From: Acidimicrobiia bacterium | GTDB taxonomy: Bacteria; Actinomycetota; Acidimicrobiia; Spongiisociales; ZC4RG35 | Reading direction: 5' to 3' | Assembly (NCBI GenBank): GCA_036259475.1 | Contig: DATABS010000013.1 | Location: forward strand, 51,430 to 115,429 | Length of the DNA stretch: 64,000 nucleotides | In this document: piece by piece, positions 16,084-53,185 of the stretch | How the letters are laid out: each line of letters opens with the position of its first letter | Position numbering within the stretch: the stretch's first letter is position 1 | The notes under the pieces: generated by a model | Database searches by the model: none | What the model saw: only the letters and a program-made list of their open reading frames with translations | What the model was told of the DNA's origin: nothing | Program-made: the position numbers and the translations under genes

Positions 16084-17460
16084 ATGACCGACTCGTCATC
16101 ACGCCTTGTCGTAGCGGCGAATCGCCTACCCGTTCGATGGGATTCCGACGACCGGCGCTGGGTCACCAGCCCGGGCGGTCTGGTTTCGGCCCTGGTTCCG
16201 ATCCTCCAGGAACGGGGCGGAGTTTGGGTCGGTTGGAACGGCTCGGTCGGAGGCGAATCTGAGCGATTCACGGCCGACGAGATCGACAACCTGTCCGTGC
16301 CTCTCGACGAGGAACAGGTCAACGACCACTACTACGGCTTTTGCAATGGCACGATCTGGCCCCTGTATCACGACGCCATCCGTCCCCCGGAATTCCATCG
16401 TCACTGGTGGCGCAAGCATGCCGAGGTCAACCAGCAGTTCGCCGACGCCATCATTTCGGTCTGCCGACCGGGTGACACCATCTGGGTACACGACTACCAG
16501 CTGCAGTTGGTGCCTGAAATGGTCCGACAGCACCTCCCAGGCAACCGGATAGGCTTCTTCCTCCACATCCCGTTCCCTCCGCCCGAGATATTCGAGCGGC
16601 TTCCGTGGCGGCGCCAGATCCTCGAAGGACTCCTCGGTGCCGACTACATCGGCTTTCAGACCCGCAGAGCAGCACTCAACTTCGCCGCCTCGGCTCGCGA
16701 GTTCGCCGGAGCCCGCGGCCCTGCCGCCTCGATGCGCTACGCCAACCGGGAGGTGAGGGCCGAGCCGGTCCCCATCGCCATAGACACGGCTCACTACGCC
16801 GGAGCCGCGTCTGACCTCTCGGTTCAGCGGCTCGGGGCCGAGCTCAGACGCGATCTCGGTGACCCCCCGACCATCATTCTGGGGGTCGATCGTCTGGACT
16901 ACACGAAAGGAATCGACCTTCGGCTTCGAGTGCTCGAGACGTTCTTCGACGAGCATCCCGAGCTGATCGGCAAGGTCTCACTCGTTCAGATTTCGGTGCC
17001 CAGCCGCGAGGATGTGGACGAATACCAGGAGATCCGCCGCCAGGTCGAAGAGATGGTCGGTCGGGTGAACGGAAGATTCGCCCAGGCCGGGTGGACGCCG
17101 ATCCACTACGTGTACCGCTCGATCCCCTTCGAAGAGCTCATCGGCGCCTATCTCACCGCCGACGTGATGCTCGTGACGCCGCTCCGCGACGGCATGAATC
17201 TGGTTGCCAAGGAGTACATCGCCACCCGGGTCGACGACTCGGGCGTCCTCATACTCAGCGAGTTCGCGGGCGCTGCCGAGCAGCTCGAGGAGGCGCTGAT
17301 AGTCAATCCATACGACCTCGATGCACTCTCGGCGACAATCCATCAAGCGGTGACAATGGGAATCGAAGAGCAGCGCCGGAGGATGCGGCGTCTTCGCCGC
17401 AAGGTCACTCGTTGGGATGTTCACAGCTGGGCGCGCCACAACCTCGAAGAGATCGCCTGA
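16084..17460 (+). CDS. otsA: Trehalose-6-phosphate synthase (GT20)
   Basis: [58 protein letters not shown]; a glucosylglycerol-phosphate synthase cannot be excluded. Confidence 0.9.
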
Positions 17461-46464: not shown

Positions 46465-46937
46465 AGGTCCTTTCCGAGACAGACGCTGTTGGGAGTCGCC
46501 TGGTACTCGCCCCAGCAGGGCACCGGATGGAAACCGAAGCCGGCGTAGAGATGCCGGGCGGCGGGCTGGGCCGGCCCCATCTCCAGGACCAGTTGGCGGG
46601 CGCCGCGCCGCTGCGCCTCCCGCTCGAGTCGTTCGAGGAGGGCGGCTCCCACGCCATTTCTCCGCGCCTCGGGCCGGACGTACATTCGTTTGATTTCCGC
46701 TCGACCATCGCCGACGAGGCGGACGGCCCCACAACCCACCGCTTGCCCGTCGAGGCGGGCGATCAAGAACACGCCCTTGTCTCCTGTGACCTGCTCGGGT
46801 TCGAGCGAGAAGTGGTTCTCGTCGGGGTGATAGAGGCTGTCGAGGACGGCGTTGAGCTCGCCGATGAGCGCCACGGACTCGGCGTCGGATGGCGCAGCTT
46901 CTTCCAGATTCACCAGGCGGGGATTCACGTCGGCCAC
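46461..46937 (-). CDS. GNAT acetyltransferase
   Basis: AVGCGA, EIKRMYVRPEARRNGVG, ARHLY..FGF. Confidence 0.92.
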   Translation of the reverse strand: MADVNPRLVNLEEAAPSDAESVALIGELNAVLDSLYHPDENHFSLEPEQVTGDKGVFLIARLDGQAVGCGAVRLVGDGRAEIKRMYVRPEARRNGVGAALLERLEREAQRRGARQLVLEMGPAQPAARHLYAGFGFHPVPCWGEYQATPNSVCLGKDL

Positions 46938-46951
46938 GGTACCCTGCCGCC

Positions 46952-47344
46952 ATGGCCACCATCTTCACCCGGATCATCGAGGGCGAGATCCCCGGCACCT
47001 TCATCTGGAGAGACGATCACTGTGTCGCCTTCATGTCCATCAACCCGCTGCGTCGGGGCCACGTTCTAGTCGTGCCGATCGAGGAGATCGACCACTGGAT
47101 CGACTGTCCCCCGGACCTGAGAGATCACCTCTTCGAGGTGGCCCAACGCATCGCCCGGGCGCAACAGGAGGCATTCGATCCCGCCAGGGTGGGACTGATG
47201 ATCGCCGGTCTGGAGGTCCCTCATCTCCACCTCCATATAGTGCCGATCGATGGGGTCCACGACCTGGATTTCGCCAACGCCGCCACCGACGTGGATCGCG
47301 AAGAGCTCGAGGCAGCCGCCCAAGCTATCCGGGAAAGGCTGTGA
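46952..47344 (+). CDS. HIT-family nucleotide hydrolase
   Basis: MATIFTRII.GEIP, GHVLVVP, EVPHLHLHIVP. Confidence 0.95.
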   Translation: MATIFTRIIEGEIPGTFIWRDDHCVAFMSINPLRRGHVLVVPIEEIDHWIDCPPDLRDHLFEVAQRIARAQQEAFDPARVGLMIAGLEVPHLHLHIVPIDGVHDLDFANAATDVDREELEAAAQAIRERL

Positions 47345-47345
47345 T

Positions 47346-47527
47346 GATTATGTGGGGGTACTCCCCCCACACCCCCCACGGCTGCCCGTGGCAGAGCGGG
47401 TCGGTGGTCGGGGCCGTCCGGCCTCGGTTGTTCGTTCTTGGGTGGTCTGTTTGATTATGTGGGGGGTACTCGCCCAACACCCCCCACGGCTGCCCGTGGC
47501 AGAGTGGGTCGGTGGTCGGGGCCATCC
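47346..47527. repeat. Two tandem copies (47346-47419, 47453-47527) of the ~70 bp palindromic repeat
   Basis: GATTATGTGGGGGTACTC...GGTGGTCGGGGCC repeated with few differences. Confidence 0.85.
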
Positions 47528-47550
47528 AGCCGGGTTCATCTCACCCGAAG

Positions 47551-47602
47551 CCGACTTCCGACTTCCGACTTCAAACTTCCGACTTTCGACCCCGACTTCC
47601 GG
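47551..47602. repeat. Heptamer tandem repeat (CCGACTT)n
   Basis: CCGACTTCCGACTTCCGACTTCAAACTTCCGACTTTCGACCCCGACTTCC. Confidence 0.8.
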
Positions 47603-47613
47603 CTGTTGACTCC

Positions 47614-48444
47614 ATGGGCGTGGTCTTAGCCGCCGTCGCCGCCTTCGGCTACGGCACCGGAGACTTCCTGGGAGGGGTCGCCACCCGCCGGATCCCGGCG
47701 GCGAGCACCCTCTTCTGGTCGCATCTGGTGGGCCTGGCTCTGTTGGCGGTGTGGATTCCGCTCGATCCCGGCGAGCCGATCGTCTCCGACATGATCGCCG
47801 GCGCCGGGGCCGGTCTCTTCGGGCTCGCAGGCCTCGTCTTCCTCTACACCGGCCTGGCACGGGGACGGGCCGCGGTGGTCGCCCCGGCCGCGGCCGTGGT
47901 GGGAGCGATCGTCCCCGTGATCGCCGGTGTCGCCGGCGGCGACCCGCTGGGTGCACTCGGCTGGGCGGGAGTGGCCGCGGCCTTGCCCGCCATCTACCTG
48001 GTCTCCACGATCGAGGGGACACCGCGACGAGCGGCCGGGCTCGGCTACGGCTTGATGGCCGGTTTGTTCTTCGGTGGGTACTTCACCGTCCTCGCCCAGG
48101 CGAGTGACGCGTCCGGCATGTGGCCGCTGGTCGCCTCCCGGGGCCTATCCGTGACTGTGCTCGTCGTCGCCGGGCTGGCTGCCCGGCGGTCGTGGCTGAC
48201 CGCTCCGGGCGGACGGGTGGGAGGCGCCGTGGTGGGCGTCGGAGTCCTCGACCTGATCGGAAACGTCGCCTACCTGCTGGCGGCCAACCTCGCCTCCCTC
48301 GTGGTCGTGGCGATGGTTGCGTCGCTCTATCCGGCGGTGACGGTGCTCATGACGAGGCTCGTCTACAGCGAGCGCCTGTCTCCCCACCAGCTGAGCGGCC
48401 TGGGCCTGGCCGTCCTGGCAGTCGCCTGCTTCTCGGCTGTCTGA
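47614..48444 (+). CDS. EamA/DMT-family transporter
   Basis: YGTGDFLGG, 10 TM in two EamA halves, SLYPAVTV. Confidence 0.9.
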   Translation: MGVVLAAVAAFGYGTGDFLGGVATRRIPAASTLFWSHLVGLALLAVWIPLDPGEPIVSDMIAGAGAGLFGLAGLVFLYTGLARGRAAVVAPAAAVVGAIVPVIAGVAGGDPLGALGWAGVAAALPAIYLVSTIEGTPRRAAGLGYGLMAGLFFGGYFTVLAQASDASGMWPLVASRGLSVTVLVVAGLAARRSWLTAPGGRVGGAVVGVGVLDLIGNVAYLLAANLASLVVVAMVASLYPAVTVLMTRLVYSERLSPHQLSGLGLAVLAVACFSAV

Positions 48445-48446
48445 AC

Positions 48447-49574
48447 TCAGCGGCGAGAGGCGTAGTCGACGACGGTTTGTTCCAGCACCTCCATCGCCCG
48501 CGAGTGGCCTGCCAGGGCGTCAGTAGTCGTGTAGGCGAGCACCCGGGCGACCCACAGGCGGAAAACCAGACTGCGCCAGGCCGGCTCAGGCCGGTAGGCG
48601 TCGATGAGATGGACGAGCGTCTCATACCACCCCTCGCCGTCGAGGAAGGCGAACGTCGGCTCCCGCTGGTTGGCCAGAATCGGCCCGGCGATGTGGCGGG
48701 GGAATGTCCGGGCGGCTTCGGCTTCAGTCGCAGTCCAGCCCTCGGTCAGTAGACGGATGGTTGATTCGACGTCGTATCCGACCTTGTGGGCGATGGCGGG
48801 CGTGGCCGGCGCCTCCGGCTCCACCTCGTGCTCGAAAGGCGAGGGAGGCGGCATCTCTCCGACGGCCAGCGCAGCTTCGAAGCACTCGTAGACCATCGCC
48901 CGCAGCTCCTCGAGAGACCCGTAGAGGGCGTGTTGCTTCCCCCCGGGCACGAAATGCTCGTACATAGGGCCGGTTCCGGCGGTGGCATAGGTGATGACGG
49001 TGTCGATTCCCCAGTCCGATCGCGAGGTGACGAAGTCGTCATCGACGAGCTTCTCGACGACACCACGGGAGAGGAGCACCTCGCCGCCCAAGGGCTGGGG
49101 GATCTGCCAGAGCTGGGATCGGGAGTGGCCGATGGCGAACAGCGGCCGCGTCAGCATCCAGGTGATCATGGCGTCGGTAGAGGCGCGGGGGAAGTAGTGG
49201 CGAACCACCGGAAAACCGTCGTCGGCTGCCTTCTCGGCCCCTTCGATCCATGAGGCGTCGAAGTTGGTGATGTCGGCGTCGTAGAAGTGGAGCCGCTCGT
49301 TGTCGCCGGTGAGGAACCGGCGCATGGCGGTGTTCATCCCGTCGCCCTTGCCGGATCGGCGGTCGCCGATCCGATCCTGGAGGATCACCTCCACCGGAAC
49401 CTTCGTCGACGTCGATATACGGGAGGACTCGCCGGCGAGCAGTTCGAACAATCGGCCCGGTTCGGCCCCCACCGCCAGCACGCCCGTCACACGCGGATGA
49501 TGGGCGGCGGTCTCGAGGTTGGCGGTTGCCACATCGGCATCTTCTGACTTGAACGGGAATACGACCAGGCTCAT
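48447..49574 (-). CDS. mgs: Mannosylglycerate synthase (GT78, Rhodothermus-type)
   Basis: MSLVVFPFK, GKGDGMNTA, HFYDADIT, VRHYFPRASTDAMITWM, QPLGGE, SDWGIDT, GYDVE, RVL.YT match my recollection of R. marinus Mgs along the full length. Confidence 0.88.
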   Translation of the reverse strand: MSLVVFPFKSEDADVATANLETAAHHPRVTGVLAVGAEPGRLFELLAGESSRISTSTKVPVEVILQDRIGDRRSGKGDGMNTAMRRFLTGDNERLHFYDADITNFDASWIEGAEKAADDGFPVVRHYFPRASTDAMITWMLTRPLFAIGHSRSQLWQIPQPLGGEVLLSRGVVEKLVDDDFVTSRSDWGIDTVITYATAGTGPMYEHFVPGGKQHALYGSLEELRAMVYECFEAALAVGEMPPPSPFEHEVEPEAPATPAIAHKVGYDVESTIRLLTEGWTATEAEAARTFPRHIAGPILANQREPTFAFLDGEGWYETLVHLIDAYRPEPAWRSLVFRLWVARVLAYTTTDALAGHSRAMEVLEQTVVDYASRR

Positions 49575-49787
49575 CGCTGCCATCCTGCCAAGCGGGCGCC
49601 TCAACGTTGTAACCGACGTTTAGGCGACTCTGCATCGCAGCAGATCGTGAGAACCCTGTGCTCCGGTCATCCGTATCGGCGATCGACGTTCATGGGAGGT
49701 GATCCGGTAACGGTCGGACCAAGAAACGGCCGGAACCTCGAGACAGGCGCCCAGCCTTGCAATAGACATGAAAAAGTCGCCACGACA

Positions 49788-49814
49788 TGTCGAAATTCGA
49801 GGTTCCGGTTCGTC
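49788..49814 (+). promoter_or_regulatory. ECF42-type promoter TGTCGA-N17-CGTC
   Basis: TGTCGA 49788-49793, CGTC 49811-49814, upstream of the DGPF gene. Confidence 0.7.
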
Positions 49815-49852
49815 GAGAGGACGAAGGTATCCCCTAGAGAAAGGAGCCGAGG

Positions 49853-50224
49853 ATGCCTAGGTACGCGGCACTCATATACGGACCGGAGGAAAGCCCCGCC
49901 GAGGCCGACCCAGAGGTGTTGGCCCAGGTGATGGCCGAATACACCGAGTTCACCGACAAGGCGGGGGCGGCCGGAGTCATGAGCGGGGGAGAGGCTCTGG
50001 AAGACACGTCGACCGCCACGACGATCCATGTCGAAGGAGGCAAGGGTGGAGAAGTGATCCACTCCGATGGACCCTTCGCCGAGACGAAAGAGGTCCTCGG
50101 TGGGTTCTTCCTCCTCGATTGCAAGGACCTGGATGAAGCCCTGATGTGGGCGGCACAGATTCCCGGTGCGTGGCACGGTCACATCGAGGTTCGTCCGGTG
50201 ATCGACTTTTCCCAGGAGCAGTGA
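49853..50224 (+). CDS. YciI/DGPF-domain protein
   Basis: DGPFAETKEVLGGF, IEVRPV. Confidence 0.95.
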   Translation: MPRYAALIYGPEESPAEADPEVLAQVMAEYTEFTDKAGAAGVMSGGEALEDTSTATTIHVEGGKGGEVIHSDGPFAETKEVLGGFFLLDCKDLDEALMWAAQIPGAWHGHIEVRPVIDFSQEQ

Positions 50225-51426
50225 CCCGGACGGTCGAAGACACGCTGAGGATGGAGGGTGGCCGGGTGCTGGCCACCCTCATCCGTCTCACGGGCGACTT
50301 CGACCTGGCCGAGGACGCGCTGCAGGACGCGGTGGTCGAGGCGCTACAGCGGTGGGGACCGGATGGGGTGCCGTCGACGCCGGCCGCCTGGCTGACGACT
50401 GTCGCTCGCAACAAGGCCCTCGATCGGCTGCGACGTGAGTCGGTCCGCGGGCACAAGGAGGCCGATGCCATTCGGCTGCTCTCCGATCCGCCGCCGGTCT
50501 CGCCGATAGACGATCGCCTCCGGCTCATCTTCACTTGCTGTCACCCGGCCCTGTCGCCCGAGTCGCGTGTGGCGCTCACTCTGAGGACCGTCGGTGGGCT
50601 CACGACCACCGAACTCGCCCGCTGCTTCTTCGTCTCAGATGCCACCATGGGCCAGAGGCTGAGCCGGGCCAAAGCGAAGATCGCCCGGGCGAAAATTCCC
50701 TACCGGGTCCCCGACGACCACGAGCTACCCGACCGTCTCTCAGCCGTCCTGGCGACGGTCTATCTCGTCTTCACGGCCGGACATCACGCCCCGCACGGTG
50801 CCTTGGACTCACGTCGGGAACTCGCCGAGGAGGCGATTCGACTGGGGCGCTTGCTACTCGAGTTGTTGGGCGACCATCCCGAGGTGCCTGGTCTTCTGTC
50901 GCTGATGCTGGCCACTCATGCCCGCCGGCAAGCCCGCCTCGACGGCAACGGCGACATCGTTCTCCTGGCCGACCAGGATCGCGACCTGTGGGATCACCAC
51001 GCCATCCGGGAGGCGTCCGACATGTTGCAGACCGCCTTGAGGCGGCGACTGCCGGGCCCGTATCAGATACAGGCCGCCATCGCCTGCCTGCACGGAATCG
51101 CTCCGAGTGACGCGGCGACGGATTGGAAGCAGATCGTCGATCTCTACCGAATGCTGGAGAACACCACCCCGCTACCGGTCGTGGCGATCAACCGCGCGGT
51201 GGCCGAAGCGAAGGTCTTCGGGCCGGATGCCGGCCTGGCGGTGGTCAACGCCGTCACCGGTATGGAGCACTGGCACCTCTACTGGTCGACACGGGCCGAG
51301 TTGTTGCGGCAGTCGGGTCGCAACGAAGAGGCAGCGGCCGCCTACCGCAAGGCACTCGACTGCGACATGAACCAAAGCGACCGTCGCTTCCTCGAGCGGC
51401 GCCTCGGAGAGATCGACACGTCCTGA
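50221..51426 (+). CDS. ECF sigma factor with a C-terminal TPR-like extension (ECF42 group)
   Basis: DLAEDALQDA, DDRLRLIFTCCHPAL, GPYQIQAAIA; coupled to the DGPF gene; GTG 50221. Confidence 0.92.
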   Translation: MTRTVEDTLRMEGGRVLATLIRLTGDFDLAEDALQDAVVEALQRWGPDGVPSTPAAWLTTVARNKALDRLRRESVRGHKEADAIRLLSDPPPVSPIDDRLRLIFTCCHPALSPESRVALTLRTVGGLTTTELARCFFVSDATMGQRLSRAKAKIARAKIPYRVPDDHELPDRLSAVLATVYLVFTAGHHAPHGALDSRRELAEEAIRLGRLLLELLGDHPEVPGLLSLMLATHARRQARLDGNGDIVLLADQDRDLWDHHAIREASDMLQTALRRRLPGPYQIQAAIACLHGIAPSDAATDWKQIVDLYRMLENTTPLPVVAINRAVAEAKVFGPDAGLAVVNAVTGMEHWHLYWSTRAELLRQSGRNEEAAAAYRKALDCDMNQSDRRFLERRLGEIDTS

Positions 51427-51487: not shown

Positions 51488-53185
51488 ATGAGTGACCCTC
51501 GCACCCCCAGCGAGAACATGGTCGGCCGCGTGATCGGAACCGACGACGCCACCCCTCTCGAGTTCTGGGTGGCGGTAGCGCCGGGGGAGTACCTCCAGCT
51601 AGACGACGTCGTGGCTTTGGAGCGGGTGCTGCCCACCGGGGAGTCCGTCCGGGTCTACGGAATGGTGTCCCAGGTACGGGCTCGTCATGAGGGCGCCAGA
51701 TTCGACTCCGATGTGTTCCTGATCTCGGACGGCGTCCTACCTGCCGAGGTGTCGGAGGCCGCCAAGGTCACTGCCACCCGGTTCGAGCCCGAGGTGTTCG
51801 TCCCGCCCCGGCCCGGCCAGCCCGTCGATCGGGCGCAGGGCGACGAGCGTGATCGAGCGCTGTTCTTCGATCGGATGGACAGGCGTCTCGCCATCGGACT
51901 GACGCGCGACAACGCGCCCCTGTTCGTCAACTTCGAGTTCCTCAATGGGGAGAGGGGCGCCCACGTCAACATCTCGGGTGTCTCGGGCGTGGCCACCAAG
52001 ACCACCTATGCCACGTTCCTACTCCACTCGCTCTTCAACGGAGCGGTCCTCGGGCCGGGGGCGGTCAATACCAAGGCTCTGATCTTCAACGTCAAGGGGG
52101 AGGATCTGCTTCACCTCGACCGGCCCAACGCGGTGCTCGAGGACGACCAACTGGTCCGCTATCGGGCGCTCGGGCTTCCGTCCGACCCTTTCAAGTCGGT
52201 CGGCTTCTACGCTCCGCCCAGGGTCGACTCCGAGACGTTGCGGGCCGACGTCTACTCCCGGTCCGACGTGACCAGCTTCTGTTGGTCGCTGGCAGAGTTC
52301 TGTCACGACGAGCTCTTGCCGTTCCTGTTCGCCGACGCCGAAGACGACCGGGCTCAGTACACCATGGTCGTCTACTCAGTGATGGCCCAGCTCAAACGGG
52401 CCACCCGCCGCGACGACGGCTCGGTCACGATCGAGGGAACCACGGTTCGCAGCTTTCGCCAGCTCGTCGAGCTCATCACCGACAAGGTACTGAGTGAGGA
52501 CGAGGGGCCCGTCTGGGCCGGTACGGCCATCGGACGGGGAACGGTCAACGCCTTCGTCCGCCGGCTCAACTCGGCGGTGCGCCACCTCGAGCGCCTCATC
52601 CGGGGCAACCTGTCGGATCCGGAGCGTCATCGGGTTCGGACCGACGACCATCGGGTCACGGTGGTCGACCTCCACAACCTCAACGACCGTGCCAAACGCT
52701 TCGTGGTGGGCGTGACGGTGCAGCGGGCGTTCGAGCAGAAAGAGCGACAGGGACGGCAGGGCGACGACGACCTGCTGTTCCTGGTCCTCGACGAGTTGAA
52801 CAAGTACGCCCCCCGGGACGGGTCGAGTCCGATCAAGGAGATCCTGCTCGACGTCGCCGAGCGAGGAAGGAGCCTGGGGATCATCCTCATCGGAGCCCAG
52901 CAGACCGCCTCGGAGGTGGAACGCCGGATCATCGCCAACTCGTCGATCCGGGTGGTGGGTCGCCTCGACTCGGCCGAGGCCTCGCGCGAGGAGTACGGGT
53001 TCCTCCCCTCTGTGCATCGTCAGCGGGCCACGATCATCAAACCGGGCACCATGCTGATAAGCCAGCCCGAGCTCCCGCTGCCGCTGGTGGCCGAGTTCCC
53101 CTTCCCCGCCTGGGCGACGCGTCCCTCGGAGGCGGTCGTGAGCGGTGGTGATGCCCCCGACGACCCCTTCCAGGGTCTCGGCTGA
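51488..53185 (+). CDS. herA: HerA-type ATPase/DNA translocase
   Basis: N-terminal HAS barrel, HVNISGVSGVATKT, LDELNKYAP, AERGRSLGIILIGAQQ. Confidence 0.88.
   Translation: MSDPRTPSENMVGRVIGTDDATPLEFWVAVAPGEYLQLDDVVALERVLPTGESVRVYGMVSQVRARHEGARFDSDVFLISDGVLPAEVSEAAKVTATRFEPEVFVPPRPGQPVDRAQGDERDRALFFDRMDRRLAIGLTRDNAPLFVNFEFLNGERGAHVNISGVSGVATKTTYATFLLHSLFNGAVLGPGAVNTKALIFNVKGEDLLHLDRPNAVLEDDQLVRYRALGLPSDPFKSVGFYAPPRVDSETLRADVYSRSDVTSFCWSLAEFCHDELLPFLFADAEDDRAQYTMVVYSVMAQLKRATRRDDGSVTIEGTTVRSFRQLVELITDKVLSEDEGPVWAGTAIGRGTVNAFVRRLNSAVRHLERLIRGNLSDPERHRVRTDDHRVTVVDLHNLNDRAKRFVVGVTVQRAFEQKERQGRQGDDDLLFLVLDELNKYAPRDGSSPIKEILLDVAERGRSLGIILIGAQQTASEVERRIIANSSIRVVGRLDSAEASREEYGFLPSVHRQRATIIKPGTMLISQPELPLPLVAEFPFPAWATRPSEAVVSGGDAPDDPFQGLG

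Follow-up and report, generated by a model that had tools for sequence, protein, structure and literature searches.

An Inherited GT78 Mannosylglycerate Synthase Homologue in One Order of Uncultured, Mostly Soil Acidimicrobiia

Genes at the Synthase Locus

The stretch of DNA analyzed here, referred to as the window, is 64,000 nucleotides long and lies on a 116-kb contig. The host is a member of the Acidimicrobiia from soil, uncultured, whose genome comprises 3.04 Mb in 112 contigs and is 97.4% complete. Among public records the nearest are MAGs with the title 'Acidimicrobiia bacterium', which come mainly from projects on soil, compost and sediment; two of these are genomes of the same genus. 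The features discussed below are listed in Table 1.

Table 1. Positions of the synthase gene and of other features of the window.
Feature	Position (nt)	Strand	Description or match
Gene for GT78 mannosylglycerate synthase homologue	48447..49574	(-)	375 aa; GT-A catalytic domain and helical C-terminal domain
Upstream region of the synthase gene	49575..49852	(-)	278 bp
EamA/DMT membrane transporter gene, convergent	47512..48444	(+)	PF00892 3.8e-20
YCII-domain gene	49853..50224	(+)	PF03795 1.4e-18; Shine-Dalgarno-like AAGGAG before ATG
ECF-type sigma factor gene, DUF6596 and TPR tail	50146..51426	(+)	Sigma70_r2, Sigma70_r4_2, DUF6596; start codon uncertain
herA-like ATPase gene, first of herA-sbcD-sbcC	51488..53185	(+)	HAS-barrel match; SbcD and SbcC Pfam matches downstream
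otsA (trehalose-6-phosphate synthase)	16102..17454	(+)	PF00982 7.2e-147; G000:C13:67531-68883, same contig

The synthase reading frame starts with an ATG at position 49574, has 375 codons and a stop codon, and is open throughout. A longer frame with a TTG start has ten extra residues (385 aa). The 375 aa sequence begins with MSLVV, which is also the start of the Rhodothermus marinus mannosylglycerate synthase (MGS), and an entry in a public collection (P0003) is the identical 375 aa gene call. Analysis by Pfam shows an MGS_GT domain (3.1e-92, 308.8 bits, cut-off 27) and an MGS_C domain (2.5e-27, 95.7 bits, cut-off 27).

A search of solved structures matches the protein to R. marinus MGS (2BO4, 2Y4J-M) with an E-value of 2.2e-99 and 336 bits, and shows no real structural matches beyond the R. 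marinus MGS entries. Positions 11–377 of the 385 aa frame align with residues 1–370 of the R. marinus chain; the window synthase has two single-residue gaps and the chain has one. The percent identity is roughly 50%, as estimated from the alignment score. The original prediction, that the protein resembles GT78 Mgs over its whole length, is borne out by both Pfam domains and by this end-to-end alignment, and the overall identity to Mgs is not low. The NCBI model of GpgS, the glucosyl-3-phosphoglycerate synthase, gives only 18.4 bits against a cut-off of 262. Judged by sequence, the window gene is a GT78 mannosylglycerate synthase homologue with an intact frame, and it falls within GT78 and outside of GT55 and GT81.

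Active Site Residues

A paper on the structure of M. tuberculosis GpgS (PMC2581804) describes residues of functional importance in MGS. Gln66 contacts the guanine and Glu11 the ribose of the donor, Lys76-Asp100-Asp192 make up a conserved network located at the sugar, and the metal ligands are Asp102 and His217. The donor-sugar pocket is lined by Leu163, Trp189 and Met229, the acceptor carboxylate is contacted by Thr139 and by the backbone of Ile138, and Tyr220 is near the phosphates (PMC2581804). Alignment to the R. marinus chain shows that all MGS residues named in that paper are present in the window synthase. The metal-site motifs HFYDADI and GKxH of the window synthase align with those of R. 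marinus, and the acceptor-site block RASTDAMITW is identical in the two proteins. Arg131 is reportedly a glycerate-binding residue of the R. marinus enzyme (Flint 2005).

These residues are highly conserved in the family. In an alignment of 89 relatives and nine distant cluster representatives, K76, D100, D102, R131, D135 and T139 do not vary, nor do L163, W189, D192, H217, Y220 and M229. All 89 loci have Gln66, as do eight of the nine distant representatives; Glu11, which is present in the window synthase, is kept in 86 of the 89 relatives. Near the active site, Tyr86, Ala216 and Arg218 of R. marinus are replaced by Arg, Gln and Ala, respectively, in the window synthase. These three positions are variable family-wide. 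Since they also vary among the representatives closest to R. marinus, they do not appear to define specificity.

Gene Order Around the Synthase

The window's neighboring genes were searched against the 89 related loci. A block consisting of sbcD-herA, the synthase gene and, beyond it, EamA-HIT-GSDH-MFS is present in 53 of the 89. Besides EamA, its members on that side are a HIT-family gene, a glucose/sorbosone dehydrogenase gene and an Atg22-type MFS gene, and the genomes of the same genus (L112, L113) display the same order. In relatives, herA and the synthase gene are positioned head-to-head, and the median distance between their starts is about 35 bp. The window genome differs in that the YCII and DUF6596 sigma factor genes form a two-gene insertion in the gap between the synthase gene and herA, which is found in this genome only. 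The two genes are directly head-to-head, without the insertion, in L112 and L113; the YCII gene was not found at these two loci, and the ECF sigma factor has no homologue in the 89 related loci, nor at L112 and L113.

The HIT-family gene of the block is at positions 46889–47344 (+). A longer overlapping frame at 46852–47454 is a false frame, which picked up tblastn matches through its overlap with the HIT gene.

The sbcD-herA-MGS block is also present in several MAGs titled Acidobacteriota (L046, L056, L057, L068, L076, L079, L086, L029, L024) and in one titled Gammaproteobacteria (L022). EamA and GSDH are usually present as well, and the HerA sequences are 72%–75% identical to that of the window. 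The synthases of these MAGs are almost identical to those of records titled Acidimicrobiia, e.g. L068 compared with L081. Mistaken record titles are the probable explanation, not a transfer of the genes between phyla.

Upstream Region and Putative Promoter

The final ~30 bp before the synthase start resemble those of close relatives and display a TGCCA..CT-like hexamer 7–9 nt ahead of the ATG, a pattern suggestive of a short-leader or leaderless promoter for the synthase gene. A scan for sigma-70 promoter and terminator consensus sequences around the gene found nothing.

In relatives a TAnnnT hexamer is situated 6–9 nt before the synthase start, and this suggests that the synthase transcript may be leaderless there. 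In L020, L025, L033, L056, L064 and others, the short spacer between the two genes contains a conserved element immediately ahead of the start of herA, with the sequence TGTCAC..N..TACGCT on the strand of that gene. It is about 60 bp upstream from the start of the synthase gene. The element resembles the actinobacterial RecA-independent DNA-damage promoter.

Distribution of the Synthase

A collection search yielded 925 relatives of the synthase, the best of which are 57%–67% identical and belong to uncultured Actinomycetota and Acidimicrobiia. The GTDB species representatives contain 226 stretches that code for a relative. Many relatives already carry the JGI label 'mannosylglycerate synthase' and one is annotated at NCBI as 'mannosylglycerate synthase domain-containing protein'. 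The GT78 family as a whole is small; a HMMER search of 1.84 billion cluster representatives gives 113 matches, 22 of them at an E-value of 1e-30 or better.

A 400-genome sample of the Acidimicrobiia class shows strong matches in the order of the window only. A strong match is present in 45 of 60 genomes of the window's own GTDB family, f1 (43 of 58 when the two unpublished genomes G227 and G369 are left out). Outside of f1, 12 genomes from four more families of this order carry the synthase: all three of f5, all six of f6, two of the nine in f12 and one of the 18 in f9. Every strong match in the class sample is uninterrupted by internal stop codons. The rest of the class sample shows weak partial matches of at most 31 bits, and a 400-genome sample of the whole phylum has no positive genome outside of the window's family.

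An overlooked actinobacterial GT78 clade was one of two explanations given in the original prediction, and the counts agree with it: the clade is large and is confined to one order of Acidimicrobiia. A full-text search found no paper that ties mannosylglycerate synthesis to Acidimicrobiia; the Borges 2014 review was outside its coverage. One order of uncultured Acidimicrobiia, most of them from soil, carries the GT78 synthase as an ordinary, vertically inherited trait that is common there but unstudied.

Inheritance and Transfer

A maximum-likelihood tree of the 89 synthase copies divides into two well-supported halves. The first has 57 rows, of which 53 show herA synteny. The window copy is in a nine-row group together with its genus and close kin (97% SH-aLRT). 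The second half is made up of copies from two further families of the order (f5 and f6) and from other Acidimicrobiia, with 14 copies of Bipolaricaulota type nested among them (99% SH-aLRT). In a second tree, rooted at its midpoint, the nine distant cluster representatives were added to the 89 copies. P0126, which is the 50%-cluster representative nearest to R. marinus (381 bits to 2BO4), was used here as a stand-in for the R. marinus enzyme. It falls outside of the group formed by Acidimicrobiia and Bipolaricaulota, a placement with weak support (85) that depends on the midpoint root. The gene tree largely matches the synteny groups.

Horizontal acquisition was the other explanation in the original prediction. 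A recent transfer into this genome from a Rhodothermus-like or other donor would be compatible with the patchy presence of GT78 across phyla and with the nesting of Bipolaricaulota copies among those of Acidimicrobiia, and transfers do occur in the family, as seen from a copy of the other clade at a different spot in one genome (G010). However, the window gene has the same position and gene order as in genomes of the same genus and the same family, its G+C content (0.66–0.68) is similar to that of its flanks, and it groups with its taxonomic kin at 97%–99% support. Recent transfer is rejected on base composition, synteny and the tree, and is extremely improbable. The synthase either entered or arose in the order long ago and has been inherited since, with repeated losses and occasional transfers. 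If the gene came into this lineage by transfer, it did so long ago, at the root of the order or the family.

The genome G010 is of the same family as the window. Its usual slot between herA and EamA (L114, G010:C13:11000-25000) is without a synthase gene and has a 1.1-kb gap with no match. The synthase of this genome belongs to the other clade and is positioned between herA and sbcD, tail-to-tail with herA. There was apparently a loss of the gene followed by re-acquisition close to the original site.

Within the genus (window compared with L112 and L113) the synthase is 65% identical, HerA 90% and the MFS gene 81%–84%. Judging by its long branches, the synthase subclade of the window evolves fast, and its predicted active site is intact.

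The EamA Gene and the Synthase

The start of the EamA gene is probably near position 47614, since sequences of relatives align from about residue 33. In the window its stop codon is 2 bp from that of the synthase gene. The original prediction was that this convergent transporter could move the solute. The presence of the gene is confirmed by its Pfam match, but the functional link is not upheld.

A functional pair, in which EamA would carry the product of the synthase out of or into the cell, is suggested by the proximity of the two genes. Their ends nearly touch in the window, they adjoin at a distance of 10–70 bp in about ten close relatives, and an EamA orthologue is found a few kb from the synthase gene in 41 of the 89 loci. 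However, all 41 are herA-syntenic and belong to one inherited synteny block, and thus they amount to one evolutionary event. In most of the 41 there are one to three genes between EamA and the synthase gene. Where the synthase gene has a different genomic context (31 copies), EamA is never its neighbor. In addition, four of seven same-family genomes without a synthase that were examined (G017, G009, G176 and G106) have kept EamA beside herA. Independent co-occurrence of the two genes was not found among these loci, and in the four genomes EamA was not lost together with the synthase. A functional pair is quite improbable, and EamA as a dedicated mannosylglycerate transporter is rejected on the co-occurrence data. 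EamA is a neighbor through inherited gene order, and a specific tie to the synthase is unsupported.

In L056, genes for an MFS transporter and a YdcZ exporter lie between EamA and the synthase gene. In G176, which is one of the genomes without a synthase, EamA is 285 bp from herA.

Host Genome and Predicted Product

The host genome encodes a GDP-mannose pyrophosphorylase (376.8 bits, curated cut-off 373), thus the donor substrate GDP-mannose can be made. A DUF4147/MOFRL glycerate kinase is also present. The otsA gene provides trehalose as a second available protective-solute route.

Actinobacteria were said in the original prediction to use typically two-step routes (GpgS/MpgS). In this genome, at 97.4% completeness, there is no match to GT55 MpgS (PF09488), a true GpgS was not found (best match 45 bits, cut-off 262), and a GH63 mannosylglycerate hydrolase (PF22422) was not found either. 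Given the completeness of the genome, these three genes are likely missing. As neither MpgS nor a true GpgS was found, the one-step enzyme appears to be the sole glycerate-glycoside route among those searched.

From its sequence and genomic setting we infer that the window enzyme probably makes mainly mannosylglycerate from GDP-mannose and D-glycerate, and that the product is used as a compatible solute. In the proposed mechanism, GDP-mannose would be bound in a retaining GT-A transferase by Gln66, Glu11 and the metal on Asp102 and His217, and D-glycerate would be bound via Thr139 and Arg131. The 2-OH of free D-glycerate would then receive the mannose of GDP-mannose, giving 2-O-alpha-mannosyl-D-glycerate in one step. 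During osmotic or drying stress the cell would build up the product in its cytoplasm as a compatible solute, alongside trehalose.

A glycerate connection is also found in gene order. In a sister subclade (f5 and kin) a DUF4147/MOFRL glycerate-kinase-type gene follows the synthase gene on the same strand in seven of seven loci (L002, L003, L023, L028, L040, L049, L052). It is 15–24 bp away in four of these and overlaps the end of the synthase gene in the rest. This ties the synthase family to glycerate metabolism independently of homology. Observations counted against the mannosylglycerate reading include the 65% identity of the synthase within the genus beside 90% for HerA; in addition, a GH63 hydrolase, which would serve turnover of the solute, was not found in the host genome.

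The sequence does not fix the product, since the R. marinus and plant GT78 enzymes are promiscuous. In vitro the R. marinus enzyme reportedly uses GDP-glucose, UDP-sugars, lactate and glycolate as well, and glucosylglycerate is said to be a further product of a plant GT78 homologue; Flint 2005, Nielsen 2011 and Nobre 2013 reportedly describe this promiscuity. The enzyme might thus make mainly glucosylglycerate or another hydroxy-acid glycoside (of lactate or glycolate) in vivo, and the differences from R. marinus at Tyr86, Ala216 and Arg218, positions that vary across the family, would be in keeping with this. These positions, however, vary even close to R. marinus, whereas the guanine-binding Gln66 and the residues of the GDP-mannose sugar pocket are invariant in the 89 relatives, and the host has GDP-mannose pyrophosphorylase. 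A main product other than mannosylglycerate is unlikely. A further reading has the enzyme working mainly in reverse or in turnover: imported mannosylglycerate and GDP would be converted to GDP-mannose and glycerate, with EamA or the MFS protein as importer. In Bipolaricaulota the homologue closes an operon for a sugar ABC importer, a context which hints, in that phylum, at uptake or salvage more than at synthesis. The glycerate kinase gene directly after the synthase in one Acidimicrobiia subclade would fit use of released glycerate, and there are several transporter genes in the window's block. Nevertheless no ABC importer or glycerate kinase gene adjoins the synthase gene in the window or its clade, and the transporters persist in genomes without a synthase. 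A Leloir transferase running backwards on an ordinary glycoside is also thermodynamically uphill. Such a salvage role is very unlikely for the window enzyme, and synthesis of mannosylglycerate is the preferred reading.

A broader proposal is that mannosylglycerate is an order-wide protectant against drying stress in soil Acidimicrobiia, and that the synthase-herA pair represents a co-switched desiccation-survival unit that combines the solute with repair of DNA breaks. The second part draws on the conserved head-to-head arrangement of the two genes in relatives and on the element resembling a DNA-damage promoter between their starts. The whole is put forward as a rather doubtful conjecture.

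Comparison with Known Systems

The GT78 family, its fold and its reaction are already known, and relatives of the window synthase are already labelled in databases. GT78 is described as rare and is reported from R. marinus, red algae, Selaginella, Physcomitrella and a charophyte (PMC3342304, bioRxiv 10.1101/2025.02.11.637652). The present analysis indicates that a one-step pathway considered a rarity in papers is standard equipment of widespread uncultured soil actinobacteria, and the GT78-bearing Acidimicrobiia appear to be without the two-step routes expected for their phylum. If the predicted product is correct, mannosylglycerate, which is usually linked to thermophiles and red algae, becomes a candidate drought or salt protectant in ordinary soils. 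The Acidimicrobiia copies also represent many enzyme variants, possibly mesophilic, for making mannosylglycerate, a commercially interesting protein stabilizer.

The R. marinus enzyme (GT78; 2BO4, 2BO6-8, 2Y4J-M) has the same two-domain architecture and length as the window synthase, and the two share the DXD motif, His217, Gln66, the sugar pocket, and Arg131 and Thr139. About half of the residues differ. R. marinus has the two-step pathway as well, which was not found in the host genome.

The eukaryotic GT78 proteins of red algae, Selaginella moellendorffii and Physcomitrella belong to the same CAZy family and are presumed to catalyze the same reaction, a likeness drawn from their descriptions. 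In the red alga Bostrychia the synthase is accompanied by GH63 hydrolases, whereas none was found in the host genome.

The Bipolaricaulota homologues are of the same family and are 46%–50% identical to the window synthase. There the synthase gene ends an operon of a binding protein, two permeases and an ATPase; the window copy, in contrast, stands alone between herA and EamA. At Bipolaricaulota-type loci (L042, L045, L050, L051, L054, L060, L067, L087, L089) a GntR-plus-binding-protein fusion gene is found beside the synthase operon.

The two-step systems consist of GT55 MpgS/MpgP, found in Thermus and archaea and as the fused MgsD in Dehalococcoides, and of the GT81 enzymes of Actinomycetota, i.e. 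the MpgS of Rubrobacter xylanophilus and mycobacterial GpgS. GT81 shares with MGS the GT-A fold, the DXD motif, the Lys-Asp-Asp/Glu network and the Thr contact to the carboxylate (PMC2581804). The end product of the GT55 and GT81 routes is of the same solute class, mannosyl- or glucosylglycerate, but these routes proceed through 3-phosphoglycerate and a phosphatase, unlike the single-step MGS.
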